Source: Promethearchaeota archaeon (GTDB lineage: Archaea > Asgardarchaeota > Lokiarchaeia > Sigyniarchaeales > SOKP01). From it: a DNA stretch of 64,000 nucleotides. The notes under the pieces are model-generated. The model did no database searches. It saw only the letters and a program-made list of their open reading frames with translations, and was not told the origin of the DNA. The stretch is from the NCBI GenBank assembly GCA_048939995.1, contig JBHLOY010000002.1, forward strand, positions 224,001-288,000, in the 5' to 3' direction. Both the position numbers and the translations under genes were made by a program. Below, piece after piece: positions 13,206-27,288 of this stretch; the stretch's first letter is position 1, and every line of letters begins with the position of its first letter.

Positions 13206-14156
13206 TTAGATATTGAATCCATCGTCAAAATCATCAAACTCATCCTCATCGATTTCAACATCAAATCTCTCTACTTCCTTTTCTTTAAGCTTTTTCTTAA
13301 GTTCTCTTCGTTCTTTGTGGGTTTGATCATAACGTTTAATGTAGACTTTTTCATATTTTTCCCGTAGTTTCTCTACACTCTCAACTTGTCCAATTTTATC
13401 TTGTAATCCATCTTCAAAAAACCAATTCCTTTTAAATTCTTTAGCTGGAATCCCAACATAAATATAATTGTCTTTTAGTATTTGCCCTACTGTTGTAACT
13501 GAATTAGCTGCTAGTACACTTCGTTTTCCAATATGAGTTCCTGGCATTACTATTGCATGTGAACCGATTCTGACATCATCTTCGATTACAGTCTTGCGAA
13601 TAATTAGTAAATTGCCTATAATAACGCTAGATTGGATTATAGCCCCTTGACCAACAACGCAATTCTTTCCGAACTCTATAAATTCTGTATCCACCCAACC
13701 TTCAAAGAGCGAATTTGAAAACTTGGTTTTAACAGAGAAGACTTTAAAACAAACATTATCTAAAAAGGGGAACGGAAATTTATGTGCCAACCAAAAAGGA
13801 AATCTCTTAATTGTGCTTCTCAGGCTCCAATAACGATAGTCTTTATCAGATCGATGCCTAAGGAAAGTCCCTTGACGTGGTTTATGAATTGCATTTACTA
13901 TTACAAGAATAATTTTTGCAAAAAAGATAGCAGAAAATACCGCAGTAACATACATAACAAAACATAAGAGTGGTAAAAAAGTATAGAAATGAATTGGTCT
14001 TACATAATCCCATAACCATTGCCAATATGCCCAAAATTCAAGCAAAATTGGCAAAATTGAAGCCCAAATTATAATAATATAAAATGTTAAATATCGTTTC
14101 TTCACTAAAACCGTCGGTAAGAACGGCCCTACCCTCATCGTATTCGGAACTGACAT
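13206..14156 (-). CDS. 2TM + hexapeptide (left-handed beta-helix) acyltransferase-like protein, class C
   Basis: Two TM helices, KPRQGTFLR..DYRYW, FGKNCVVGQGAII, IEDDVRIGSHAIVMPGTHIG, YVGIPA. Confidence 0.8.
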   Translation of the reverse strand: MSVPNTMRVGPFLPTVLVKKRYLTFYIIIIWASILPILLEFWAYWQWLWDYVRPIHFYTFLPLLCFVMYVTAVFSAIFFAKIILVIVNAIHKPRQGTFLRHRSDKDYRYWSLRSTIKRFPFWLAHKFPFPFLDNVCFKVFSVKTKFSNSLFEGWVDTEFIEFGKNCVVGQGAIIQSSVIIGNLLIIRKTVIEDDVRIGSHAIVMPGTHIGKRSVLAANSVTTVGQILKDNYIYVGIPAKEFKRNWFFEDGLQDKIGQVESVEKLREKYEKVYIKRYDQTHKERRELKKKLKEKEVERFDVEIDEDEFDDFDDGFNI

Positions 14157-14162
14157 ACTTTT

Positions 14163-16055
14163 TCAATCCTCCTTTGTTTTTACTAACTTAAGTTTATCCT
14201 CATCAATATTTACATCATGCTCTACTTCAAACTTCTCAGAATCGTCAACTTCTCTCTTTATTATGATATCCCGTCGTTCTTCAGCATATTTGTTCTCTTT
14301 CAACTTAATTGCTGGAATTCCAAAATATACCCATGCAGGTTCTAGAATTTGATTGACTGTGGTACTTGAAATTGCACCGATGACAGAATCATTCCCCATA
14401 ATTGTTCCTGGGGCTATAGTTGTATGGCCACCCACTAAGACGTAATCTCCAAATATTACCGGCTTTACAATTAAATATTTGCCAACAATCATCGAGGACA
14501 TGATTGTAGCACCTTGACCTATCAAATTCTTTCTTCCAAATGTGATAAATTCACCATCACACCACGCATCATTAAGATGACTCGAGAAATCCATTTTAGT
14601 ACCAAACCATCTAAATGCTAGTACATCTAACCAAGGAAGTGGAGAATTTCTTAAAAGCCACAAAGCAATTTTCTTTAATTCTGTACGAAGAAGCCAAAAT
14701 TCATAGTCCATATCTCTGAGTTGAGCCAGAAAGATTCCCTCCTTAGGATGGTGGATTAGATTTACAAGAATTAATAATAATTTGCTAAAAAGTAAAACTC
14801 CAAGAATAAATATGTATGACATAAAAAGAATTGCTATTGGAAGATATAAAAGTGAGTTTATATGAAAATCATATAGATATAAATGCCATCCTTTTGTTAA
14901 TTCATACCAAAACAAGCAAATAAACAGGCCTGTCAACCATAAGATTGGCAAGTATACTGCTAAGAATTTAATATTGACTCTACTTATTGCACTTGTTGTA
15001 GTAAAATCCAAAGCAAGATCTTCACTTTTTAGATTATCAATATCAATATGTTCAAGATCATCAACATCATGCAATTCTTCTTCTAAGTCTTCCTCTTCTT
15101 CAAATTCCTCTACTTTGATAAGAGATTCTTTTTCATTTTCTTTCATTTTTTCTTTTTTCTTTTTCTTGATATAATTTTCTGGATTTTCGTTTTTTATTAA
15201 ATCTTCTTCAGTTAACCCTAACCAATTCATAATCTTTTTCTTAAAAATCTTTCTCAGAGGAAGACCAAAATAATAATTGTTTTCTCCCTTGAGAACGCTA
15301 TGTGCATTAGTAGATGACAATGGAAGTAAATAAGCATCGCTTTTAATCTCAGAACCTGGTCCAATCTGATTCATAGCAGCAAGAGTAACATTGTCTCGCA
15401 AATAAATTCGAAAATAATTAATATTACCAAATATTCCAGTAAGAATGTGACTAGCTAATGTCGAATTAACTCCTATATAGCAGTTTTTGCCCACGTCTAT
15501 AAACTTATCGGACCCTACCGACTCTTCTATTGTTGTACCCTTCCCTACCTTAGAATCAATCTGCCTAAGATACCACTTTGATATCCAAGGAAATGCTCCT
15601 TTATTAAAAACATTTTTCCCGTATTTATAAATAAAACTCCTTAAATGGTAATAGTTTGCAGTTTTACTCTTAATATTTCTGGGGATAATCCCATCTTTTG
15701 AAGGAGAAATCTTTTCTGTAATTGCCCAAAAAATTCGTGTGATGATTCCTATCAAAAGTAACCTAACCAAATAGCAGGCTATTATGACTAAGGGCATACA
15801 TAATAGAGAAAGTAAAGGTCCTAACTCCGTAAATATGGAAATGAAATTAGCCGTTTCCAAAAAATTAGGGAGAAAAATGAAGAGAACATAAGCAAAGAAT
15901 ATGAAGCCGGGTACTAGCCAAGAACCATAATAAATAATTAAAAAAATCGTAATATAGAGATGAAATTGAAGGCTAACTTCTTCCTTAACCACTTCTTCTT
16001 CATTATTATTATCTGAATCTTCATTCTTTCCTGAATCTTCAGACATTGTTTTCAT
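14163..16055 (-). CDS. Fused double [2TM + LbH] protein, classes A+B
   Basis: Two modules (VGKGTTIE..VGKNCYIG..YFGLP; FGRKNLIGQGA..GGHTTIAPGTIMG..YFGIP) joined by a K/E-rich linker. Confidence 0.8.
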   Translation of the reverse strand: MKTMSEDSGKNEDSDNNNEEEVVKEEVSLQFHLYITIFLIIYYGSWLVPGFIFFAYVLFIFLPNFLETANFISIFTELGPLLSLLCMPLVIIACYLVRLLLIGIITRIFWAITEKISPSKDGIIPRNIKSKTANYYHLRSFIYKYGKNVFNKGAFPWISKWYLRQIDSKVGKGTTIEESVGSDKFIDVGKNCYIGVNSTLASHILTGIFGNINYFRIYLRDNVTLAAMNQIGPGSEIKSDAYLLPLSSTNAHSVLKGENNYYFGLPLRKIFKKKIMNWLGLTEEDLIKNENPENYIKKKKKEKMKENEKESLIKVEEFEEEEDLEEELHDVDDLEHIDIDNLKSEDLALDFTTTSAISRVNIKFLAVYLPILWLTGLFICLFWYELTKGWHLYLYDFHINSLLYLPIAILFMSYIFILGVLLFSKLLLILVNLIHHPKEGIFLAQLRDMDYEFWLLRTELKKIALWLLRNSPLPWLDVLAFRWFGTKMDFSSHLNDAWCDGEFITFGRKNLIGQGATIMSSMIVGKYLIVKPVIFGDYVLVGGHTTIAPGTIMGNDSVIGAISSTTVNQILEPAWVYFGIPAIKLKENKYAEERRDIIIKREVDDSEKFEVEHDVNIDEDKLKLVKTKED

Positions 16056-16209
16056 CTGATTTAAGTTTGAAATGTATAAATAAATTGGTAATTAATTTTT
16101 ACTTAAAATTACTACACTATATTTATAATAGTTATTTTTTTTATCTTTTAAAGTTATATGTGTTAACATTTTCATGATTTTTTTGGATTTATAATAAGTT
16201 TCATCTGGA

Positions 16210-16614
16210 ATGAACATGAAAAGCATGAAAGAAATATGTAAAAATTGTGGAATCTGTTGTCAGAACACAGAAATGTTGTTATCAGAACAAGACATTCGGT
16301 TAATTGAAGAGAAATTGTTGAATATAACTAGAAATGATTTTACAGAATTAAATGAAAGAGGAATGCATCAATTAAAAAATAAAAATAGTCATTGTGTCTT
16401 TTTGGATAATAGCTCAAAAATGTGTACTATATACAAAATCAGACCCCAAGGTTGCAGATTTTATCCCATAGTATATGACTATAATAAAAAAGTGTGCCTT
16501 TATGATAGAGACTGCCCAAGGGTTAAAAAATTTTACTTAGATGACTATAAATTCAAAAAAGTATGCGAAAAAATTAAAAATTTTATTAAATCGGGATTAA
16601 AAGTTAAATTATAA
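16210..16614 (+). CDS. YkgJ family cysteine-cluster (Fe-S/Zn) protein
   Basis: CKNCGICC...CVFL...CTIYKIRPQGCRFYP. Confidence 0.88.
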   Translation: MNMKSMKEICKNCGICCQNTEMLLSEQDIRLIEEKLLNITRNDFTELNERGMHQLKNKNSHCVFLDNSSKMCTIYKIRPQGCRFYPIVYDYNKKVCLYDRDCPRVKKFYLDDYKFKKVCEKIKNFIKSGLKVKL

Positions 16615-17608
16615 AAATGCTTTTAATGTGATCTCTATTTCTATAAGAATTAAATGCCTCTGAGAATTTTACTAAAGGAAATTCTTTCGAAATTAGATTT
16701 TTAACTTTAATCTTGCCCAACTTTATAGCTTCTATTGCTTTTTCGAAAGGACCACATCTGCTTGTATACAATATAATCTCTCTTACAACCAAATCTGTTA
16801 AATTTATCATTGAATCTAACCCATGTGTGCTCTTTATATGAATTTTACCTCGCGTTCTAGTAGAGGCAATGATGTCAGAAATTGCATTTGGATTTCCAGT
16901 AGCATCCAAAGTTATGTCCGCTCCTAAATTATTTGTAACTTCTTTAATGTAATTGGGTATGTTTTTTACTTGTAAACGGTTTATAAGAGTTTTAGCCCCT
17001 AAGTTTTTTGCTAATTTGAGTTTTGTTTCAGACCCATCAATTATAATTACTTCAAGGCCTTTAAGAATAGCGATTTGAGTAATTAATAAACCCAATTTCC
17101 CCGCACCAAAAATCGCTATAGTTCGATCCTGATTCCCTATAGGCATCATTTCAAACGTCTGATAAGCCGCGGCTAAGGGTTCGATAAAGGAAGCTTCCTT
17201 AAATGAAATATTTTCAGGAACTTCATGTAATAAATAGGAATCGACTGCAATATAATTAGCGAAAGCCCCATCAATGTCGATTCCTATAGCTTTTCGCGAT
17301 ACACATTGGGAGAAAATCTTCTGTTGACAAAAATTACAATCAAAATCAATGTTAGCATTTATTTCAGAGGTAACTTTTTTCCCCAGCCACTTAGTACTAA
17401 CTTTCCTTCCTAGCTCTACAATTTCGCCTGAAAATTCATGCCCCAAAACAATTGGTACAGGTGTACTTAACTCTCCTTTTGAGATTGCTAAATCAGTTCC
17501 ACATATTCCCGCAACTTTAACTTCAATTAAAACTTGATTAGCATTGATCTTAGGCTTTTGAAATTCTTTTAATGCTAATTCTTTTCCATCGAATACTATG
17601 GCTTTCAT
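16604..17608 (-). CDS. Zn-dependent medium-chain alcohol dehydrogenase (threonine/sorbitol DH-like)
   Basis: GICGTD, LGHEFSG, EPLAAA, GAGKLG. Confidence 0.9.
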   Translation of the reverse strand: MKAIVFDGKELALKEFQKPKINANQVLIEVKVAGICGTDLAISKGELSTPVPIVLGHEFSGEIVELGRKVSTKWLGKKVTSEINANIDFDCNFCQQKIFSQCVSRKAIGIDIDGAFANYIAVDSYLLHEVPENISFKEASFIEPLAAAYQTFEMMPIGNQDRTIAIFGAGKLGLLITQIAILKGLEVIIIDGSETKLKLAKNLGAKTLINRLQVKNIPNYIKEVTNNLGADITLDATGNPNAISDIIASTRTRGKIHIKSTHGLDSMINLTDLVVREIILYTSRCGPFEKAIEAIKLGKIKVKNLISKEFPLVKFSEAFNSYRNRDHIKSIFII

Positions 17609-17770
17609 AATTTATAGAGTAATTTTAATATTATAAATAAAAAAATTTAATTTCTCAAATTAATATTAAGATTCAGATAAAGCATTTTTATGTAAAATAA
17701 GCCTTACTTACTTTAATTATCTTTATTTTATATCTATTAGAATTCTATTAAATATTATAAAAGTGATTTC

Positions 17771-18307
17771 ATGCAAAAAACTATATTAACATGGGAAATT
17801 ATTGGTATGGTCTTTATTACTTTTTTAGGATCTTTTCTCCATTTCCTCTTTGAATTATCAGGATATTTTCCACCGATTGGAGCGATAGCCGCAGTAAACG
17901 AAAGTGTATGGGAACATTTAAAACTTGGATATTGGCCATTAGTACTTTATTCTTTAATTGAGTATCGATTTATTAGAGATAAGTCAAATAATTTTGTAAT
18001 CGCAAAGGCAGTTGCTGCTTTTGTAATACCTGTCGTAATTATTGTGTTCTTTTACTCGTATACCGCAATTCTAGGGACTGATTTACTATTCTTGGATATT
18101 TTTAGCTTTGTTTTAGCAATTATAATTGCTCAATTAGTCAGTTATAAAATTTTAACTTTACCTAAAATCTCAAATGCGTACACCATTATTTCTTGGATAT
18201 CAATTATCACACTTGGAATCTTATTTGTAGTATTTACTTATTTTCCGCCTTACTTTCCTCTTTTTGAAGATCCAATAACAAATTCCTATGGAATTGTAAT
18301 TCACTAA
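17771..18307 (+). CDS. Membrane protein (DUF6512-like)
   Basis: GSFLHFLFE, VNESVWEHLKL, FTYFPP..PLFEDP. Confidence 0.7.
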   Translation: MQKTILTWEIIGMVFITFLGSFLHFLFELSGYFPPIGAIAAVNESVWEHLKLGYWPLVLYSLIEYRFIRDKSNNFVIAKAVAAFVIPVVIIVFFYSYTAILGTDLLFLDIFSFVLAIIIAQLVSYKILTLPKISNAYTIISWISIITLGILFVVFTYFPPYFPLFEDPITNSYGIVIH

Positions 18308-18396
18308 TAGCCATTAGTTCTATATTCAAATCAATTTACTTTTTTAATTCTTTTACATATATAATTATCTGAAATAAAATTTATTTGATTTAACTC

Positions 18397-20037
18397 ATGA
18401 ATTCATTTGATTTTGATAAAGAGGTCCAAAAGTATTTTAATCGCTCATATTCTGATATAAAATGCGTAGATTGGGAAAAATGGTTAGATGTATCAAGCAG
18501 AGAAGAATATGAGGATTTATCGTTAAAATTATCTGGTTTATCCTCAGTTGATGGGCTTTTTGAGAAAATGCGTACCGAATTAACCGACTCAAAGCAAATA
18601 TCCTTGAATTTAGCAACATTTCTAAACAATTTTGATGATTCAAATATTCCAATATTATGTCATACTTCTGGGACGACTAATAGTGAGATTTCAGCTTTAA
18701 AATGGTTTAACATGTCTAGAGATATAGTTAAAAGAACTTGGGCCCCTGGTATGCAAGCTATTTTTGAATCGAGTGGTTTAAATAGAAGATTATCTGCAGT
18801 AATATTTGTTCCATCACGAATTAAAATAGATGGACTTCAATCATACGAGGGGCAAAAATATCTGTCTTTATATTCGTCAGAATTTTCACAGAGAGTTATG
18901 CTTTCACTAATAAAACCACAAAACTATAGCTTTTATGAGTATAAGAATTCAAAGAATTTGGAGGTTATTTCTAAAATTTTAAGTTTGGAAAAAATAGCTG
19001 TTATCTCTGCTCCCGCAATAACAATCTTAGGATGGGCAGATTTAGAAAAATTCCAAATTGGTTTAAGGAAATCTCTAGAAGATTTACCAGAAGAAAAAGT
19101 TCCAATTCTAGATGAATTATTAACAATTATTGAAAAAAAAGGTATAGAACAGGCATCTGAAATTATTCAAAAGAGACTCTCTGAAAAATTATCTAACGCG
19201 ACCCTAATATTTAGTATAAGTTCTCTTTCTGAACATAATTGGTCTATGATACGTAAATTTATGAGATGGGAAGAAGGTGGAGAACGATTTACTAATCTTT
19301 ATGTAGCCTCTGAGATTGGCCCATTTGCAGCTAGTATTTCAAAAGGAGATTTTAGGCTTTCACGTATGAATAGAATGTATGTTTTTCCCCTTACTTTGCC
19401 TGTCCTCGAATACGGAAACAAAAAAATGCGTATTTCCGAAATTTCAGATCAAACTGGTAAGCTCTTCATTTCAAGAATGGGTGATTCAAAGGCTTTAATA
19501 AATATAGATATTGGAGATATAATTACTGTCAGGAATTCAAATGGTCTACCCCAGATCGATGGAAACATCATTAGATCAAGCTTTCAGTTAAAATATGAAG
19601 TAAAATTATCAAACAAGGTTGAAATTCCAAATAAATTTAGGATTTTAGCTGGAGATTTTTTTTCCTTAAAAAATTTAATAATCAAACAACCGAGAAATTT
19701 GTTAAATTGTCTAAAAGCTAATTGTGAACTAGAAACTGATGCATTATTACTTCTACCAAAGGATGATCAGAGTTGGGATTTAGTTCTACCAGGAGATTTG
19801 AAATCAAACTGTATTAATGAAAAAAAAATATTTGAAATTATCTCAAAATGTCCAACTCAAGCAGATATTTATCAAGCACTCATAAACAATTCAATTAATC
19901 TAAAATTTATAGAAGATCAACCTGTTGATTTTTTGGCTACACGAGAAGAAATATTAAAGAAAGTAAGAGAAGGTCAAATGCCCAAGGGTATTTTAAAGAA
20001 GTGGCCCTTATATGTGATTTCCACTAGAAATCAATAA
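18397..20037 (+). CDS. Adenylate-forming (ANL superfamily) ligase, GH3/PaaK/LuxE-like
   Basis: HTSGTT P-loop, YVASEIG, DIGDII in the expected order. Confidence 0.65.
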   Translation: MNSFDFDKEVQKYFNRSYSDIKCVDWEKWLDVSSREEYEDLSLKLSGLSSVDGLFEKMRTELTDSKQISLNLATFLNNFDDSNIPILCHTSGTTNSEISALKWFNMSRDIVKRTWAPGMQAIFESSGLNRRLSAVIFVPSRIKIDGLQSYEGQKYLSLYSSEFSQRVMLSLIKPQNYSFYEYKNSKNLEVISKILSLEKIAVISAPAITILGWADLEKFQIGLRKSLEDLPEEKVPILDELLTIIEKKGIEQASEIIQKRLSEKLSNATLIFSISSLSEHNWSMIRKFMRWEEGGERFTNLYVASEIGPFAASISKGDFRLSRMNRMYVFPLTLPVLEYGNKKMRISEISDQTGKLFISRMGDSKALINIDIGDIITVRNSNGLPQIDGNIIRSSFQLKYEVKLSNKVEIPNKFRILAGDFFSLKNLIIKQPRNLLNCLKANCELETDALLLLPKDDQSWDLVLPGDLKSNCINEKKIFEIISKCPTQADIYQALINNSINLKFIEDQPVDFLATREEILKKVREGQMPKGILKKWPLYVISTRNQ

Positions 20038-20110
20038 TCAATTGTCTGATTAATAAGTTATAAAAAAACAATATAAATTCCTTTTTGCCTTAAATTATAA
20101 GTAAAATAGA

Positions 20111-20596
20111 ATGGTTTTCAGAATGAAAGATAAATTCAATCTCGTTGGTACAAAGATTACTGAATTTGAATTACCAAATTCTCGAGGAGAAACAAAAAAT
20201 ATTCGAGGTTTACAAGGACAAAATGTGGTCCTTGTACTATTTAGGAGTAAAAACTGACCTTATGCAAAAGCTCATGCTCAGAAACTTAGTAAAGAATATG
20301 ATAAGTTTAAAGATTATAACGCAACACTTTTTACCATTTTACCTGATGATTTTGAGAGTGCTCAAATATTTGAAAAAAATTTTGCAAAGAATGTATACCC
20401 CATATTCTATGATGATACAAAAAAAGTTAATAAAATGTTAAAACAGGAAGTTAAACCTTTAAAACTAGGAAGAATGCCAGCCCTTCTTATTATAGATAAA
20501 GAAGGAATTATCAGATATGCATACTACAGCGATTCGATGTCAGATATCCCCGAGAATGAAGTTGTATTTGAAGTACTCAAAAATCTTAATAAATAA
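20111..20596 (+). CDS. Peroxiredoxin-like (AhpC/TSA, redoxin) protein with in-frame TGA at 20255-20257; probable selenoprotein (alternative start 20123)
   Basis: Manual translation: VGTKITEFELPNSRGETKNIRGLQGQNVVLVLFRSKN*PYAKAHAQKLSKEYDKFKDYNATLFTILPD...YPIFYDDTKKV...GRMPALLIIDKEGIIRYAYY...; the same frame continues to TAA 20594-20596; TGA is at the first Cys position of the redoxin CPYC motif. Confidence 0.8.
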
Positions 20597-20598
20597 TA

Positions 20599-20671
20599 TG
20601 ATTTGGTATGAATAAAATATAAAAAATTGTTGAATTTTATTCTAATAAGTTAGCCATACTTTACCAAATCA
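20599..20671 (+). ncRNA. 3' UTR stem-loop immediately after the TGA-containing gene; candidate SECIS-like element
   Basis: TGATTTGGTA (20599-20608) / TACCAAATCA (20662-20671) perfect 10 bp; inner GAATAAAAT (20610-20618) / ATTTTATTC (20634-20642); ATGA at the base of the inner stem and an A-rich apex; canonical 3' GA not evident. Confidence 0.4.
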
Positions 20672-20757
20672 ACCAATATTTTTACTTTAGAAATAGGAAC
20701 ACTTCTTAAATCTGGATTTGGGAGAAAAAGTATACTGCTGTTAAGCTAGTCAAATTT

Positions 20758-20791
20758 ATTATAGTTATAACTATAATTTTAACTATAATTT
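20758..20791. repeat. 20-bp perfect palindrome overlapping a 12-bp tandem repeat, between convergent genes
   Basis: ATTATAGTTATAACTATAAT at 20758-20777; TAACTATAATTT twice at 20768-20791. Confidence 0.6.
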
Positions 20792-20806
20792 ATTCTTATA
20801 TATGAC

Positions 20807-21700
20807 TTATTTCAAAAAACGTGGATCACTTTCGAGAAATTTAATAGCCTTTAAGACACTTTTTTCCTTATCTTTTATCTCTAACATAATATCAAAATCA
20901 AATTTTTTAGTCTTTTTAATAAATTCTTTAAAGTGGTTAAGATTGACATTATCAGCATGCGTAGGTTTTCCTTTTTTGGGGTGTTGAGAGCTATAATGTA
21001 CAATTGGTTTTCCATCAATAGCCTTCCAAGTTTGAAGGGAAAGTTTAAAGGCACCTTGAAGAGAAAGGCCTGAATTAAAGCATTCATGATGATACACATC
21101 TAATATGAGAGGAATACCTTCAGTCTCACTAATCTTAACACATTCGCTTAAATTATAATTTTTGTCATCATTTTCAATCACATATCTCTTTTTAATCGAA
21201 GATTCCAATGTTTTATAAACTTTTTTAAATCTATTAATACTTGCACTTTTATCGCCATATACACCACCTATGTGGGTCATTATTTTAGCTGTCGAATCTA
21301 ATCTAAGTAAATCTAACACATTAGTATGATATTGTAATTCTTTAATACTATTTGCGACCACATTTGCATTTTTTGAATTTAAAACCGTATACTGTCCAGG
21401 ATGCATAGTTATTCTCATTTTATTCTGTTTAATATATTTCCCAATTTCTCTAAACTTAAGCTTGAAATAATCTTGCCAATCAAATTTCATAATTGGGTGC
21501 GAAGCAAATGGAATCAAATCAGATGTTATTCTAAAGAAAAATATTTTATTCTCACAATTATATTTAAGAATTTGGAGTAAGCAGTCCAAATTCCCTCCAA
21601 TAGTATTAATAAGTCGTTCTTCGGAATAATTCTTTAAGCGAAAGGTTCTACTACTCCTACATTTTAAACTTAAATTAATGCAGGGATATCCAATTTTCAT
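20807..21700 (-). CDS. uvsE: UV DNA damage endonuclease
   Basis: MKIGYPCIN, FFRITSDLIPFASHP, MHPGQYTVLNS, HIGGVYGDK, IENDD, LDVYHH, VHYS, MLEIKDKE. Confidence 0.93.
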   Translation of the reverse strand: MKIGYPCINLSLKCRSSRTFRLKNYSEERLINTIGGNLDCLLQILKYNCENKIFFFRITSDLIPFASHPIMKFDWQDYFKLKFREIGKYIKQNKMRITMHPGQYTVLNSKNANVVANSIKELQYHTNVLDLLRLDSTAKIMTHIGGVYGDKSASINRFKKVYKTLESSIKKRYVIENDDKNYNLSECVKISETEGIPLILDVYHHECFNSGLSLQGAFKLSLQTWKAIDGKPIVHYSSQHPKKGKPTHADNVNLNHFKEFIKKTKKFDFDIMLEIKDKEKSVLKAIKFLESDPRFLK

Positions 21701-21715
21701 TCTAATCGATTTTTT

Positions 21716-22567
21716 CTAGCCTTTTGAAATTATTTTATCTTTTCTCCTAGTATAAAGCTCTTCATATTTCTTTCCTAACTGCTCCATATCATGTTTTTGT
21801 TCAGCAATCACTTCTTCCAATCCTTCCTCAAAAAATACGTCTTTTTTATACTTTCTCGCAGGAGCGCCAAGATAAACCCATCCTTCTTCTAATTCCTGCC
21901 CAACAGTTGTAAGTGAGCTAGCAGCTAATACACAATTCTTATGAATGTGAGTTCCTGGCATAACAACAGAATGGACGCCGATCCTTACATTATCCTCGAT
22001 GATTGTTTTTCTAATAATCAGTAAGTTCCCAATGATTGTAGCAGATTGGATAATACTTGCTTGGCCACAAACTACGTTTTTTCCAAATTCTATAAACTCT
22101 GTATCACACCATGACTCAAAAAGTGAATTTGAAAGAGTTGTCTTAACTCCAAAGAATTTAAAGCAGAGATTATCTAAGAAAGGAAGCGGAAACTTATGAG
22201 CAACCCATATTGGCCACTTTTTAATAGTATTTCGAATACTCCAATAACGATAGTCACGATCCATTGGATCTCTAAGAAATGTGCCTTCACGAGGCTTATG
22301 CAGAAGATTAGCGCAAATTAATAAAAACTTAGCAATTAATAACGATGAAAAAACCAGTGAAACATACATAGTGAATATTAAAAGTGGTAGAAAAATAAGA
22401 AAATGCACAAACCTAGTCGTGTATAATGAACTCCAATACCACCAAAATTCGAACTGGATCACAAAAAGACTAAACCAAATTTCAAAGATGTATAGGATTA
22501 AATATTTTTTCTTTACTAATACTAGACTTGTATGAGGTCCTACCCGAAAATTTCCTGGTACAGACAT
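21716..22567 (-). CDS. 2TM + LbH protein, class C; paralog of 13206..14156
   Basis: MSVP..RVGP..LVKK.YL, KPREGTFLR..DYRYWSIR, hexapeptide repeats. Confidence 0.8.
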   Translation of the reverse strand: MSVPGNFRVGPHTSLVLVKKKYLILYIFEIWFSLFVIQFEFWWYWSSLYTTRFVHFLIFLPLLIFTMYVSLVFSSLLIAKFLLICANLLHKPREGTFLRDPMDRDYRYWSIRNTIKKWPIWVAHKFPLPFLDNLCFKFFGVKTTLSNSLFESWCDTEFIEFGKNVVCGQASIIQSATIIGNLLIIRKTIIEDNVRIGVHSVVMPGTHIHKNCVLAASSLTTVGQELEEGWVYLGAPARKYKKDVFFEEGLEEVIAEQKHDMEQLGKKYEELYTRRKDKIISKG

Positions 22568-23460
22568 TAATCCTCTTCTTCGTGATTATAATTATTATTT
22601 AATAAATTTTTTTTTTCATCATCGATATTAACTTCATGTTCAACTTCAACACTTGTTTCTTCTTCAACATCCCTCTTAAAAATTCTATCTCGTCTTTGTT
22701 GTGCATACTTGTTTGGTTTATACTTCATTGCCGGAAGTCCAAGATAGATCCAGCCAGGTTCTAAAAATTGGTTATAATTTGTATTTGTAAATGCGCCACT
22801 TACGGATTCTTCTCCAAAAATAGTGCCAGGAGAAACATTAGAAACTCCTCCTACTACCGTATAATCTTCAAAAATTACCTTCTTTATAATCAAATATTTT
22901 CCAACAACCATAGAGCTCATAACTATACTTCCTTGGCCTATAGTTATTTTCCTGCCGAACTTAATAAAATCTGTATCTACCCATGCATCTTGAAGATGAC
23001 TAGAGAAATCCATATGGACACCAAACCATCTAAAACCCCACATTACAATCCAGGGCAATGGACTATTTGTCATCAGCCATAATGCTAACTTCTTTAACTC
23101 GATTCGCAATCGCCAAAACTCAAAATCAGTATTCCCGGGCTCTGCTCTAAATACTCCCTCTTTTGGCTTATGTATCATATTTACGATTAATAAACATGCC
23201 TTTGAAAAAATTGCTATACCAAAAATAAAAATAAAGTATAATATAAAAAGCCAAAATGGAATCAGCAGCATACTAGCAATCCAATTATTTAGATATCGAG
23301 AAACATCAAAAAACACAGTAATTGCCATATATCCACTAATCCACAAAATTGGAATGTATAGAACAAGAAATTTCCAACTTATTCTACTTATTGCACTACT
23401 GGTGATAAAATCAATTGTATAGTCTATTTTATCATTTGTTTCGTCTTTAGCTTCACTCAT
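22567..23460 (-). CDS. 2TM + LbH protein, class B; corresponds to the C-half of 14163 and 25468
   Basis: DFITSSAISR, HKPKEGVF..DFEFWRLRIELKK, MDFSSHLQDAW, VEHEVNIDDEK. Confidence 0.8.
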   Translation of the reverse strand: MSEAKDETNDKIDYTIDFITSSAISRISWKFLVLYIPILWISGYMAITVFFDVSRYLNNWIASMLLIPFWLFILYFIFIFGIAIFSKACLLIVNMIHKPKEGVFRAEPGNTDFEFWRLRIELKKLALWLMTNSPLPWIVMWGFRWFGVHMDFSSHLQDAWVDTDFIKFGRKITIGQGSIVMSSMVVGKYLIIKKVIFEDYTVVGGVSNVSPGTIFGEESVSGAFTNTNYNQFLEPGWIYLGLPAMKYKPNKYAQQRRDRIFKRDVEEETSVEVEHEVNIDDEKKNLLNNNYNHEEED

Positions 23461-23470
23461 CTTGCAAACT

Positions 23471-24352
23471 TCACCTTACTTTTTCCTCATTTTTCTTATC
23501 TCTGAGCTTTTCTGCCTTTTCAAAATCTGCTTCAGTTATATCTAAATAGTCTATTACTTTTTTTTTAAAGATACGACGCAATGGAGCACCAAAATAGTAA
23601 TTATCACCTTTTAGGATGTTAAATTTAGTCGCGCCACTCATCGGTAATAACCATGAGTTATCGTTTACTTCTGAACCAGGGCCAACACAATTAAATGCAC
23701 CAGCAGTAACATTATCACCAATTTTAACTCTAAAATAAGAAATATTACCAAATATCCCTTCTACAGCATGAGAACTGATCGCTCCTCCTATCCCAAAATA
23801 ACAATTCTTCCCAATAGTGACGAATCTATCAGCGCCTACATTCTCTTCGAGAGTAGTTCCTTTTCCGATTATATTGGTTCCAATAAAATTGTAAAGCCAC
23901 GTGATTAGCCAAGGAAAAGGACCTCTTATTATAGAATTTTTTGGATATTTTATAACAAAACTTCGAATATGATAATAATTTGCCGTTTTACTAGGAATGT
24001 TTCTAGGGATAATTCCATCCTTAGAAGGTGAAATTTTTTCAGTTGTCCTCCAAATACCTCGTGTGATAAGGGCCATGAAAAACACATGAACTAAATAACA
24101 TAATATGATTATCAATGGCATAAAAATTGAAGCTAAAAGCGGTTCCAGTCGCGTAAACAGCAAAATGAATTTATTTTCTTGCAAAAAATATGGTGAATAG
24201 AATAACATGACATACAGCATGAAAATAATTGCTGGAATAATGAACGACCCAAAATAAATTATGAAAAATAAAATCATATACCAATGAAACTGGAGATTTA
24301 TTTCTTCCTTAGCGATTCCTTTATCAGTTTCATTTATTTGAGTGGTTTTCAT
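23471..24352 (-). CDS. 2TM + LbH protein, class A; corresponds to the N-half of 14163 and 25468
   Basis: EKISPSKDGIIPRNIPSKTANYYHIRSF, IGKGTTLEE, HAVEGIFGNI, YYFGAPLRRIF. Confidence 0.8.
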   Translation of the reverse strand: MKTTQINETDKGIAKEEINLQFHWYMILFFIIYFGSFIIPAIIFMLYVMLFYSPYFLQENKFILLFTRLEPLLASIFMPLIIILCYLVHVFFMALITRGIWRTTEKISPSKDGIIPRNIPSKTANYYHIRSFVIKYPKNSIIRGPFPWLITWLYNFIGTNIIGKGTTLEENVGADRFVTIGKNCYFGIGGAISSHAVEGIFGNISYFRVKIGDNVTAGAFNCVGPGSEVNDNSWLLPMSGATKFNILKGDNYYFGAPLRRIFKKKVIDYLDITEADFEKAEKLRDKKNEEKVR

Positions 24353-24530
24353 CTCTTAACTTATGCACATTTTTTTAAAGTTATCATAGAAATAATTATA
24401 TGAATATTATTATGAGTTCTTTGACTATTTATTATGATATAATTTAAAAATTTCCACACTATTGATTTTAGGAATAATATATTAAGAAAAAATAAAAGGT
24501 TAAATATTATATTTTATTAAAAATTTTGAA

Positions 24531-25367
24531 TCAATCTTTAGGTTTTTCTTTTTTAGGAAACCATGGTATAAATGAGCTAGTTCTCTTCTTGTATGCGGCA
24601 TATTCTTCATTCCCTTCGAATCTCTTATCTAATAATCGTACTCCTGATACTTTTATTATTTGAAACGTAATATATGCAGGGCCAATAAATGTTATAAATC
24701 CGAATGGGACAGCTAATGCTATTACAAAGAGACCCCACCATTGAGTTACTTCTCCAAAATAATTAGGATGTTGCGAATATTTCCATACACTTTTAGTCAT
24801 AATTCTGTTCTTGTTAGCTGGATTTTGCAAAAATTTATAAAGGGAATAATCTGCGATAGTTTCAAAGAGAAATCCTATTAACCAGATTATTGATCCTAAC
24901 CATAAAGTTACTCCTCCAAAATCTAATAAATTGGTTACAGGAGGATTGGCACTTATATTTACAAACCATACAGGGATACAAACGAGAAAAACTATAATTC
25001 CTTGGAATAAATAGACTTTAAAGAGACTTTTTAGAGCAACATTTTTTTTCCAACGTTCACGCATTGCTTTATATCGATAATCTTCAGGTTTTCCTCTATT
25101 TCTTATAAAAACATAGGTTGCTAGCCTAATCGCCCAGATTAATACTAATATCGTTACTATAATTTGACGAATGCAATAACTTGACGTGAATACCAGATTA
25201 AGTATAAGGCTTGTTAATGCAACAACAAAATAAGCAGGGCCATAAAATATGTCCATGATTGCATTATTTCTTTTTATTGTTCCGACTATAAAAGCAATGA
25301 ATATGTATATAAATAGTGCTAATGCTGAGTATCCAATTGTTGTTAACATAATTTCAATAGTTGTCAT
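24531..25367 (-). CDS. DUF1295 / steroid 5-alpha reductase-like membrane protein
   Basis: WAIRLA, EDYRY, ETIADY, WKYSQHPNYFGE, YKKRTSSFIPW. Confidence 0.88.
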   Translation of the reverse strand: MTTIEIMLTTIGYSALALFIYIFIAFIVGTIKRNNAIMDIFYGPAYFVVALTSLILNLVFTSSYCIRQIIVTILVLIWAIRLATYVFIRNRGKPEDYRYKAMRERWKKNVALKSLFKVYLFQGIIVFLVCIPVWFVNISANPPVTNLLDFGGVTLWLGSIIWLIGFLFETIADYSLYKFLQNPANKNRIMTKSVWKYSQHPNYFGEVTQWWGLFVIALAVPFGFITFIGPAYITFQIIKVSGVRLLDKRFEGNEEYAAYKKRTSSFIPWFPKKEKPKD

Positions 25368-25467
25368 AAAAAATACGATTAAATATTAAAATCTTAAAAG
25401 ATGATTATTTGGAAAATATTTATAGTTTATATCTATTAAATAAAGATTTTAAGATTTTTTTTAGGAG

Positions 25468-27288
25468 CTACAGCTTTTTTTTTTTATCCTCTTCGATGTT
25501 TACTTCATGTTCAACATGAAACTTAACTTCTTCATCTACATCTTTTTTAACAATGATGTCCCTTCTCGTTTCGGCATATTTGTTCGGTTTTAGCTTTATT
25601 ACTGGTATTCCTATATAAATGTAGCCTGGCTCTAAAACTTGGTTTAGTGTGGTAATAGAGATAGCAGCAACAACCGTATCCTTTCCAACGATTGTTCCAG
25701 GGGCAATAGTTGTGTGACCTCCTACTAAAGCATAGTCATCTAGAATTATCCTAGAAATTATTAGATATTTCCCGATTACCATTGAGCTCATCAGATTTGC
25801 GCCTTGCCCAATCATTACTTTTCTCCCAAAATAGATAAACTCGCCATCGCACCATGCATCATATAGATAACTTGAATAATCCATTTTGATTCCAAACCAC
25901 TTAAAAGCAAGAGCATCAGCCCAAGGGATAGGGCAATTTCGCATTAGCCATAAAACAACTTTTTTTAACTCAGTACGCAAAAGCCAAAATTCGTAGTCCA
26001 TATCTCTGAGTTGAGCCAAAAAAATTCCTTCCCTAGGGCGATGAAATAAATTGACGAGGATGAGAAACAACTTACTATATAAAAAACAACCTAAAATGAA
26101 AGCAAAATATAGGAAGAATAACAGTGCGGGTAAGAAAAATACGAAGAGGATAGGGTTGGTTACGAACACTGTGTAGGTATAAAATAGGATCCCAACTTGT
26201 AATCCGCTAATCCAGAAGATAGGGAGATAAACTGCCAGAAATTTAATATTAATTCTACTAATTGCTGAGCTAGTAGTAAAATCAACAGTTAAATCTAATT
26301 CTTCATTTTTGATATCATCCTTCTGTTCTTCTTTTAATAATGGATTAGATTCACCTTGAAATTCGTTTAAGATTTTTTTCTTTTTATGCTTCTTGGATTT
26401 TTTATCAGGCACTAAAGTTTTTAAAGAAATCTTATTTTTATCCAATTCTTCTTGCGTTAAATTAAGATATCTCATGACTTTTTTATCAAATATACGTCTT
26501 AAGGGAATTCCGAAATAATAATTATGTTCTCCCTTTAGAACGCTATGCTTAGTGGCAGATGCCAAAGGTAATAGATAAGAATTATCTTTAATCTCTGTTC
26601 CAGGACCAATCTGATTGATCCCTGCTGTGGTAACATTATCTCCAACGTTGATTTGAAAGTATGCGATATTGCCAAAAATTCCTTCTACTAAGTGAGTAGC
26701 TAACGTCGAGCCTACAGCAAAATAACAATTTTTTCCTACAATTCCGAATTTATCATTTCCAACAGATTCCTCAAGTGTACTTCCCTTTCCAATAACCATT
26801 GAACCCACAAAATTAAATAGCCAATTAGAGAGCCATGGAAATAGTCCCTTAACGAACAAGTTCTTAGGATACTTAATGAGAAACGATCTAAGATGATAAT
26901 ATTTCTCAGTTTTACTTCTAATGTTACGTGGAATAATGCCACTTTTACTGGGGGACTTCTTTTCAGTATATCTCCATATTAAACGAGTGATTATTGCGAC
27001 AAATAATAATCTAATAAGGTAACATATAATCAAGACAATTGGCATCGTCAGAAATGCAATTAGCGGCTCAAGTTCGGTAAAAAGACTAACAATATCGGGT
27101 ATAGCTAAAAATTTTGGCAAAAAGAAAGCAAAAACATAGAACATAAATAGAGCGATGGGAACGAGAAAGGATGCTAAATAGATTGTTAATAAAATGACTA
27201 TAGCTGAAAAATATTGAACGCTTAGTTCTTCCCTCTGTACGGGAGGTTTTAACAGTTTAGATGCTTTTACTTGGGGTCTTGATTCCAT
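25468..27288 (-). CDS. Fused double [2TM + LbH] protein, classes A+B; paralog of 14163..16055
   Basis: Same two modules; identical EGIFLAQLRDMDYEFWLLRTELKK segment. Confidence 0.8.
   Translation of the reverse strand: MESRPQVKASKLLKPPVQREELSVQYFSAIVILLTIYLASFLVPIALFMFYVFAFFLPKFLAIPDIVSLFTELEPLIAFLTMPIVLIICYLIRLLFVAIITRLIWRYTEKKSPSKSGIIPRNIRSKTEKYYHLRSFLIKYPKNLFVKGLFPWLSNWLFNFVGSMVIGKGSTLEESVGNDKFGIVGKNCYFAVGSTLATHLVEGIFGNIAYFQINVGDNVTTAGINQIGPGTEIKDNSYLLPLASATKHSVLKGEHNYYFGIPLRRIFDKKVMRYLNLTQEELDKNKISLKTLVPDKKSKKHKKKKILNEFQGESNPLLKEEQKDDIKNEELDLTVDFTTSSAISRINIKFLAVYLPIFWISGLQVGILFYTYTVFVTNPILFVFFLPALLFFLYFAFILGCFLYSKLFLILVNLFHRPREGIFLAQLRDMDYEFWLLRTELKKVVLWLMRNCPIPWADALAFKWFGIKMDYSSYLYDAWCDGEFIYFGRKVMIGQGANLMSSMVIGKYLIISRIILDDYALVGGHTTIAPGTIVGKDTVVAAISITTLNQVLEPGYIYIGIPVIKLKPNKYAETRRDIIVKKDVDEEVKFHVEHEVNIEEDKKKKL

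Follow-up and report, generated by a model that had tools for sequence, protein, structure and literature searches.

A probable split, stand-alone counterpart of the Pls/PosA membrane beta-helix domain in Asgard archaea

The genome of an Asgard archaeon (Promethearchaeota archaeon, assembly GCA_048939995.1; 3.75 Mb, 98% complete) contains, on contig JBHLOY010000002.1, six minus-strand genes that together carry eight homologous membrane modules. The genes lie within the stretch of 64,000 nucleotides analysed here (positions 224,001 to 288,000 of the contig, hereafter the window), and each module combines two transmembrane (TM) helices, linker helices and a left-handed beta-helix (LbH). In every module two strongly hydrophobic helices precede a hexapeptide-repeat region. 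The repeat family PF00132 scores at or above its cut-off of 27 bits in four of the six proteins (45, 33, 29.8 and 27.1 bits); a fifth reaches 25.3 bits and the sixth gives no match. Repeats and fold place the modules in the LbH acyltransferase superfamily. When the two long proteins were halved and all eight modules aligned, three classes emerged: class A comprises one stand-alone gene and the N-terminal halves of both long proteins, class B another stand-alone gene and the two C-terminal halves, and class C the two remaining single-module genes (Table 1). Members of class A are 52-53% identical to one another, versus 16-23% identical to classes B and C, and 14 alignment columns are invariant across all eight modules. 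A sequence-only reading of the window had proposed the layout AB+C, A+B+C and AB on the minus strand. All six open reading frames are present at the coordinates of Table 1, the alignment recovers the three classes, and in a tree of 67 modules A, B and C form separate, well-supported clades.

Table 1. Module genes of the window, followed by the other genes among and around them
Feature	Coordinates	Strand	Remarks
Class C module gene, 316 aa	13206-14156	-	Start 6 nt past the AB stop codon
AB fusion, 630 aa	14163-16055	-	Class A module at about 8-304, with His203; class B module at about 342-625
Stand-alone class C gene, 283 aa	21716-22567	-	Its ATG and the B gene's TAA stop overlap
Stand-alone class B gene, 297 aa	22567-23460	-	TIGR02353 E 5.5e-6, residues 61-268
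Stand-alone class A gene, 293 aa	23471-24352	-	Histidine present at the LacA His115 column
Second AB fusion, 606 aa	25468-27288	-	Without its own class C; upstream of the DUF1295 gene and the A+B+C set, same strand
CxxCxxCC (PF03692) protein	16210-16614	+	Divergent from the AB gene; adjacent in 22/26 genus loci
Zn-dependent dehydrogenase (threonine/inosose-dehydrogenase-like)	16604-17608	-	Adjacent in 18/26 genus loci
DUF6512 gene	17771-18307	+	Directly upstream of the ANL gene
ANL-fold (PaaK/GH3-like) adenylating enzyme, 546 aa	18397-20037	+	Context only
98-aa open reading frame	20145-20441		No Pfam match
UvdE UV-endonuclease gene	20807-21700	-	Starts 15 nt past the class C gene, same strand
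DUF1295 membrane protein	24531-25367	-	E 2e-62; between the orphan AB gene and the A+B+C set

The modules follow one another in a fixed order. Class-specific hidden Markov models (HMMs), applied to 26 loci from 25 genomes of the window's genus, assigned every module to a class, and the order A-B-C was kept in all 41 runs; the genomes are close kin, and the 41 runs show conservation rather than 41 independent events. The commonest arrangements are AB+C (16 runs) and A+B+C (13), followed by A+A+A+B+C (4), AB (4), A+A+B+C (3) and a single B+C run cut by a contig end. The orphan AB fusion of the window recurs in two other genomes of the genus (L012, L065), and the fourth AB run (L076) lies near a contig end. 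The earlier proposal that the A/B/C trio is conserved together thus holds across the genus. The genes are also tightly joined. In the A+B+C set the stop codon of B and the start codon of C overlap (TAATG), with GAGGA just upstream, and in the AB+C set AAGGAGGA lies within the 3' end of AB, upstream of the C start 6 nt past the AB stop. Such tight or overlapping junctions with ribosome-binding-type motifs suggest that the subunits are co-translated. The sister family has a pair only: an A-like gene and, after it, a gene that branches in the 67-module tree as sister to B and C together. From this placement, the split between B and C is a later duplication.

Fusions occur at two different junctions of the trio. 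The AB fusion is found in 410 database proteins, with 59-86% identity over the full length among the matches listed, and in the 630-aa protein a charged, poorly conserved linker of about 40 aa separates the two modules. In other genomes of the same family the trio is joined elsewhere: CA+B sets, in which a C-A fusion of 506-555 aa is followed by a B-type gene, were found at 12 of 12 loci of 8 genomes (L077-L089; for example L077:2388-4869). This set is not present in the window's genome. The C-A fusions have no linker between their modules, and a promethearchaeal protein of 797 aa (P0122) is a linker-less triple whose successive modules are, by HMM score and tree, C-like, A-like and B-like. 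Among 1.8 billion representative proteins searched with the profile, single, double and triple forms of the module were found, and none of the best 150 matches is as long as Pls. A-B-C and C-A-B are one and the same cyclic order, with fusions at both the A-to-B and the C-to-A junction, as a ring of three different modules would predict.

The family is confined but expanded. The module profile finds matches in all 41 related genomes examined, at 2-15 modules per genome, and a wider sample of the family includes genomes with up to 17. In a 121-genome sample of the phylum, strong matches occur only within the window's own order and weaker ones in a few other families; the closest database proteins are labelled Promethearchaeota or Lokiarchaeota. 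A description of this Asgard module family was not found in the literature searched. The window's genome also holds three more distant modules outside the window. Contig 10 carries a pair with overlapping reading frames, D+E (minus strand, L001:7309-8904), after which comes a metallophosphoesterase gene; a singleton, F, lies on the minus strand of contig 13 (L002:7421-8227). The singleton adjoins a short-chain dehydrogenase/reductase (SDR) gene in three genomes and a glycerophosphodiester phosphodiesterase gene in three. An F-D fusion protein is known (P0151) and hints, speculatively, that F, D and E may constitute a second, dispersed trio.

To our knowledge, the only studied relative of the module is the polymerising end of the poly-lysine and poly-ornithine synthetases, whose mechanism and structure are unsolved. 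The family that describes this Pls/PosA terminal domain, TIGR02353, is the top NCBIfam match for four of the six window proteins and the second for the other two, at scores of 17-48 bits versus a cut-off of 423; the window proteins carry one or two modules per chain, versus three in tandem in Pls/PosA. For the stand-alone class B protein there was no Pfam match, and its only other NCBIfam match was a non-significant one to LpxA (E 0.13). A firmer connection comes from bacteria. With the Asgard profile we recovered stand-alone triples of about 680 aa from Planctomycetales and Omnitrophota, as well as a fusion of an SDR with a triple, at E 1e-23 to 1e-33, and these triples score 168-184 bits on TIGR02353. 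Aligned by hhalign, the Asgard modules match the bacterial triples with 98.3% probability (E 2e-14) over 177 columns, which span TM2, the adjoining P-x-x-E-G-x-F motif, the linker helices and the beta-helix. Against P0277, a Pls-like protein of 1753 aa with adenylation, thiolation and LbH domains, the probability was 92.4%. This protein, from a EukProt transcriptome, has AMP-binding, PP-binding and hexapeptide domains and is the sole protein above 1100 aa that matches the AB fusion; being the only Pls-like sequence at hand, it enters the tree with long branches and weak alignments. The profile similarity to the Pls/PosA terminus that had been anticipated therefore extends past the generic beta-helix into TM2, the motif after it and the linker helices. 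Because the bacterial stand-alone triples bridge the two, the link to Pls/PosA is solid, and by sequence comparison the relation is real but distant.

The tree separates the two lineages of modules. All Asgard classes form one clade (SH-aLRT 95) and the bacterial singles and triples another (98), within which modules 1, 2 and 3 of the triples are orthologous among themselves. Since the Asgard classes have a clade of their own, the differentiation of A, B and C is independent of the bacterial triplication. Bacterial single modules, of about 225 aa, occur in Proteobacteria and Desulfobacterales, and the genes of several bacterial relatives belong to dTDP-sugar or polysaccharide loci, with RmlA/B/C/D-type, GT1, GMC oxidoreductase, SDR or PEP-CTERM genes as neighbours. 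In an uncultured member of the Planctomycetales (L040:7971-16407) a triple heads co-directional GT1, GMC oxidoreductase, SDR and RmlA-, RmlD- and RmlB-like genes; in an alphaproteobacterial metagenome-assembled genome (L045) a single module stands between RmlC and RmlB. These loci fit an acylation of sugars or glycolipids in those bacteria, a reading that does not transfer to the Asgard genes.

The structural picture of this domain comes from prediction. In an AlphaFold model of PosA's C-terminal domain, six bent TM helices lie under three beta-helices, which together form one pseudo-threefold domain with the beta-helices packed like those of a trimeric sugar-nucleotide acyltransferase (PMC10522769). 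When the AB protein, a bacterial triple and the module profile were searched against the PDB, no structure of a Pls/PosA C-terminal domain came up, and the only matches were soluble LbH enzymes and gamma-carbonic anhydrases. Our own AlphaFold2 model of the 630-aa AB fusion, built on 118 sequences, reached a pLDDT of 62.6 and a pTM of 0.58, with the class A beta-helix below 50; the class B half is the sole part with usable confidence. The cytoplasmic domain of that half is closest to maltose O-acetyltransferase (Z 14.2 over 150 residues, 22% identity), followed by the sugar N-acyltransferases AntD and QdtC, which act on dTDP-sugars, and Pcryo_0619 (Z 12-14).

A potential active site was located through LacA of Escherichia coli (K-12 record), which was aligned to the profile of each class. 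Its His115, which we take from established structural work on LacA to be the general base of this galactoside acetyltransferase, aligns with a class A histidine in the motif L-A-S-H (94% probability), and the loop that follows is as in LacA. In the 630-aa protein this residue is His203; 118 AB orthologues keep it without exception, and across 51 class A modules its conservation is at least 95%. At the same column class B has lysine, asparagine or arginine and class C has a gap. Class C does possess an invariant histidine, in an R-x-G-x-H motif before an M-P-G-T turn; it was rejected as a catalytic candidate, as it aligns with LacA His143 and not with His115. Across the wider family, histidine occupies the His115 column in 12/12 class A modules, 3/3 A-like modules of the sister family, 5/5 singleton F modules and 4/4 bacterial single-module proteins; in the bacterial triples it is confined to module 2, and it is absent from B, C, BC-like, D and E modules. 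Among the three classes of the trio, then, only class A has a general-base histidine of the LacA type. Forms without a paralogous module gene alongside, which are presumably homomeric, keep the residue, and systems with several classes keep it in one class. A single active site contributed by class A fits this distribution, because no other class of the trio retains the His115-type histidine.

Fusions at both the A-B and C-A junctions, the linker-less C-A-B protein and the restriction of the histidine to one class all favour a heteromeric A/B/C assembly, as the sequence-only reading had supposed. LbH enzymes are normally homotrimers, as in LacA, Maa, LpxA and PglD, and each Asgard class might likewise form its own trimer (A3, B3, C3), acting in series or independently within one pathway, with the AB fusions holding an A3 and a B3 side by side. 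We regard such homotrimers as rather unlikely. Their case draws on the single-module bacterial relatives and the Asgard singleton F, which have no paralogous module gene alongside, and on the AB linker, whose length and poor conservation could allow two separate trimers. It is met by the absence of any linker in the C-A-B triple and the C-A fusions, by the missing catalytic-type histidine of B and C, which all presumed homomeric members keep, by the single-chain pseudo-trimers of the bacterial triples and Pls, and by gene junctions that suggest translational coupling.

Several further observations weigh against a heterotrimer, and the first three of them count in favour of homotrimers as well. 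The sister family, with its A-like and BC-like genes, would need a 1:2 stoichiometry; the five-gene A+A+A+B+C runs are a poor fit to a simple 1:1:1 operon; and the AB model, which shows no confident arrangement of A and B, is too weak for their packing to be read. Moreover, the agreement in cyclic order rests on two or three independent arrangements and is suggestive rather than statistical, and the catalytic role of the class A histidine rests on a profile alignment to LacA at 92-94% probability, not on structure. Finally, no conserved neighbour points to a substrate, and the Asgard genes, unlike those of the bacterial relatives, do not lie in dTDP-sugar or polysaccharide loci.

Conservation among the AB orthologues is highest in and near the membrane-proximal parts of the protein. 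The best conserved elements are the motifs after TM2 (S-P-S-K-x-G-x-I-P-R-N in class A and H-x-P-x-E-G-x-F in class B), and a D-F-x-T-T-S-A-I-S-R motif that directly precedes class B TM1, together with the linker helices and the beta-helix. Conservation is moderate in the TM helices and poor in the linker between the modules. The cytoplasmic ends of the hairpins are flanked by basic residues. Because of this motif conservation and these basic flanks, the beta-helices probably face the cytoplasm and the functional centre probably lies near the membrane. As the most conserved motifs are membrane-proximal, the acceptor, too, is probably membrane-associated.

The donor was approached through the gene content of the host. 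LbH enzymes bind the phosphopantetheine arm of coenzyme A (CoA) or of a carrier protein. Neither a PP-binding domain (PF00550) nor a phosphopantetheinyl transferase (PPTase) of the ACPS family (PF01648) gave a match anywhere in the 98%-complete genome, and control genomes were detected; the genome does encode 17 AMP-binding genes. None of the six window proteins matches an AMP-binding, that is adenylation, domain. A thiotemplate-like mechanism of the Pls kind is therefore unlikely, and with carrier domain and ACPS-family PPTase both missing from the genome, a CoA thioester is the parsimonious donor.

Taken together, these observations lead us to favour, with some reserve, a heterotrimeric, cytoplasm-facing membrane acyltransferase that has one active site, in class A, and probably uses a CoA thioester as donor. 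In such a complex A, B and C, as separate or fused subunits, would build a ring-shaped heterotrimer of pseudo-threefold symmetry, anchored in the membrane by six TM helices, one hairpin from each module. The three LbH domains would pack together on the cytoplasmic face, as in the trimeric LbH acyltransferases and in the C1-C2-C3 model of Pls/PosA. The single active site would lie at the interface of A with a neighbour, and B and C would serve as partner or scaffold subunits. The additional A genes of the A+A+A+B+C runs in sister genomes, and the orphan AB fusion, may provide alternative catalytic isoforms. The donor would most likely be a CoA thioester and the acceptor probably a membrane-associated molecule, unless the product is handed to the TM bundle.

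A more ambitious version of this scheme deserves mention, although we think it improbable. The complex could be a carrier-independent membrane polymerase or lipid acyltransferase, supplied at the single class A site with an amino, hydroxy or fatty acyl unit in CoA-activated form and either building and exporting a polyamide or polyester through the six-helix bundle or acylating membrane lipids. If this were true, a carrier-independent ring with interchangeable catalytic subunits would be an independently evolved counterpart of the Pls polymerising domain.

The opposite possibility is that the modules do not catalyse at all and serve as structural or regulatory membrane beta-helix proteins, like the gamma-carbonic-anhydrase-like heterotrimer on plant complex I. 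That complex I bears a membrane-attached LbH heterotrimer, whose subunits are among our sequence and fold matches, lends this idea some appeal, as do the divergent, low-confidence class A beta-helix and neighbours that give no clue to a substrate. Yet the class A histidine at the catalytic column does not vary, many polar residues of this class are likewise invariant, and active acyltransferases are the nearest matches by fold. Read by eye, the class consensus sequences show no evident zinc-binding histidine triad of the gamma-carbonic-anhydrase type, and on this ground the gamma-carbonic-anhydrase reading was set aside. A non-catalytic role thus seems to us very improbable, and the membrane acyltransferase remains the preferred reading.

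One enzyme encoded among the module genes had been given a central part in the system. The protein at 18397-20037 has no Pfam or NCBIfam match even at E = 5 (PF00501 and PF03321 among those unmatched) and no PDB sequence match. Its AlphaFold2 model, built on a 15-homologue alignment (pLDDT 89.6, pTM 0.88), has the two-domain ANL fold, and Foldseek placed the acyl-CoA ligase BT_0428, PaaK1 and GH3 amido synthetases at the top of its matches (E 1e-11 to 1e-9, probability 1.00). Residues S91, G92, T93, Y302, S305, E306, G373, D374 and K530 are invariant in the 15 homologues; in our own reading they correspond to the ANL motifs, namely a TSGTT P-loop, a Y-x-x-S-E resembling YGxTE, a G-D and the C-terminal lysine K530. 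Predicted fold and invariant core motifs agree, and the assignment of this gene as an ANL ligase stands.

Its supposed role fared less well. In a split Pls-like polymerase the neighbouring ANL enzyme would activate an amino or acyl acid that A/B/C then polymerises or transfers. The intact fold and motifs of the enzyme, the homology of the modules to the Pls polymerising domain and the nitrilase-superfamily amidase gene directly after class C in other genomes would all suit such a machine. The distribution of the ANL gene does not: it is found in 18 of the 41 related genomes, versus 41 of 41 for the modules. Three genomes with a listed completeness of 100% gave no match for it, nor did any of 11 genomes searched from the sister family, which keeps the module pair. 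Adjacency to module genes, a point in favour where it occurs, is seen in only 5 of the 26 genus loci. The missing carrier domain and ACPS-family PPTase likewise speak against a polymerase of this kind, as does the lack of orthology between the Asgard classes and the three modules of the bacterial triples. We accordingly give little credence to a module system built around, or fed by, the ANL enzyme. The DUF6512 gene upstream of it is present in about half of the other ANL-gene loci as well, and from this pairing it looks like the real partner of the ANL gene.

The remaining neighbours offer no common theme. The CxxCxxCC gene is the most conserved neighbour within the genus; it and the Zn-dehydrogenase gene are convergent to each other. 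Domain matches bear out the names previously given to the Zn-dependent dehydrogenase and to the DUF1295 protein, the gene for which occurs in 4 of 25 other genus loci. UvdE stands next to a class C gene in at least five other genomes (L016, L065, L072, L031, L038), and three genomes of the genus (L013:13010-13798, L014, L015) have a gene of the nitrilase (CN-hydrolase) superfamily directly after class C in their A+A+(A)+B+C sets. None of these five genus neighbours (CxxCxxCC, Zn-dehydrogenase, nitrilase-superfamily, UvdE and DUF1295 genes) persists in the sister family, where the conserved neighbours are an Elf1-like zinc-ribbon protein and an unknown protein, and across genus and sister family the neighbours yield no shared pointer to a substrate.

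The idea of a split Pls/PosA-like machine is, overall, partly supported: Pls-type homology, the conserved trio and a heteromeric ring find support, and neither the dependence on the ANL enzyme nor the thiotemplate-like mechanism does, given the 18 of 41 co-occurrence and the missing carrier parts. What remains is a Pls-like architecture whose parts are separable, one subunit having the histidine and its two partners lacking it; this could make the Asgard system a tractable model for membrane beta-helix rings. Among the uncharacterised membrane enzyme families of Loki-type Asgard archaea, the module family is one of the more strongly conserved and expanded, and its product, be it a lipid, a surface glycan modification or a polymer, likely matters for the cell envelope in the archaea most closely related to eukaryotes. 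If the Asgard heterotrimer and its single site are as we infer, the passage from a homotrimer to a pseudo-trimer with one active site would have evolved twice independently.

Four known systems resemble the Asgard modules in different respects. The gamma-carbonic-anhydrase-like heterotrimer of plant and protist complex I is likewise membrane-attached and composed of diverged LbH subunits, some of them catalytically dead; it belongs to another LbH subfamily with zinc chemistry, however, and is attached through a larger complex rather than by TM hairpins of its own, so that the analogy is architectural only. The LacA/Maa-type O-acetyltransferases and the sugar N-acyltransferases (AntD, QdtC, PglD-like) share the LbH fold with an N-terminal helical part, and His115 of LacA aligns with the class A histidine. 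These enzymes are trimers that use CoA thioesters, but they are soluble homotrimers with three identical active sites, whereas the Asgard modules have a TM hairpin per subunit, three diverged classes and the histidine in one class only. A third group is the uncharacterised bacterial proteins with the same combination of two TM helices and an LbH, which also have the module without adenylation or thiolation domains and keep the histidine in one module of the triples and always in the singles; they differ in forming a separate clade, in being single-chain or single-gene, and, in several cases, in residing in dTDP-sugar or polysaccharide loci, unlike the Asgard genes. The C-terminal domain of Pls/PosA (TM1-6, C1-C2-C3) has the same repeat unit of TM hairpin, two linker helices and LbH, the same three units per functional unit and the same cytoplasmic placement of the beta-helices, which on the Asgard side is presumed. 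In the Asgard system, by contrast, the modules are split over two or three genes and have no adenylation or thiolation domains, and a carrier-bound aminoacyl thioester is not possible as donor. The Asgard system is probably a stand-alone counterpart of the Pls/PosA membrane beta-helix domain that is split and has evolved independently, and probably a CoA-dependent acyltransferase with one catalytic subunit.

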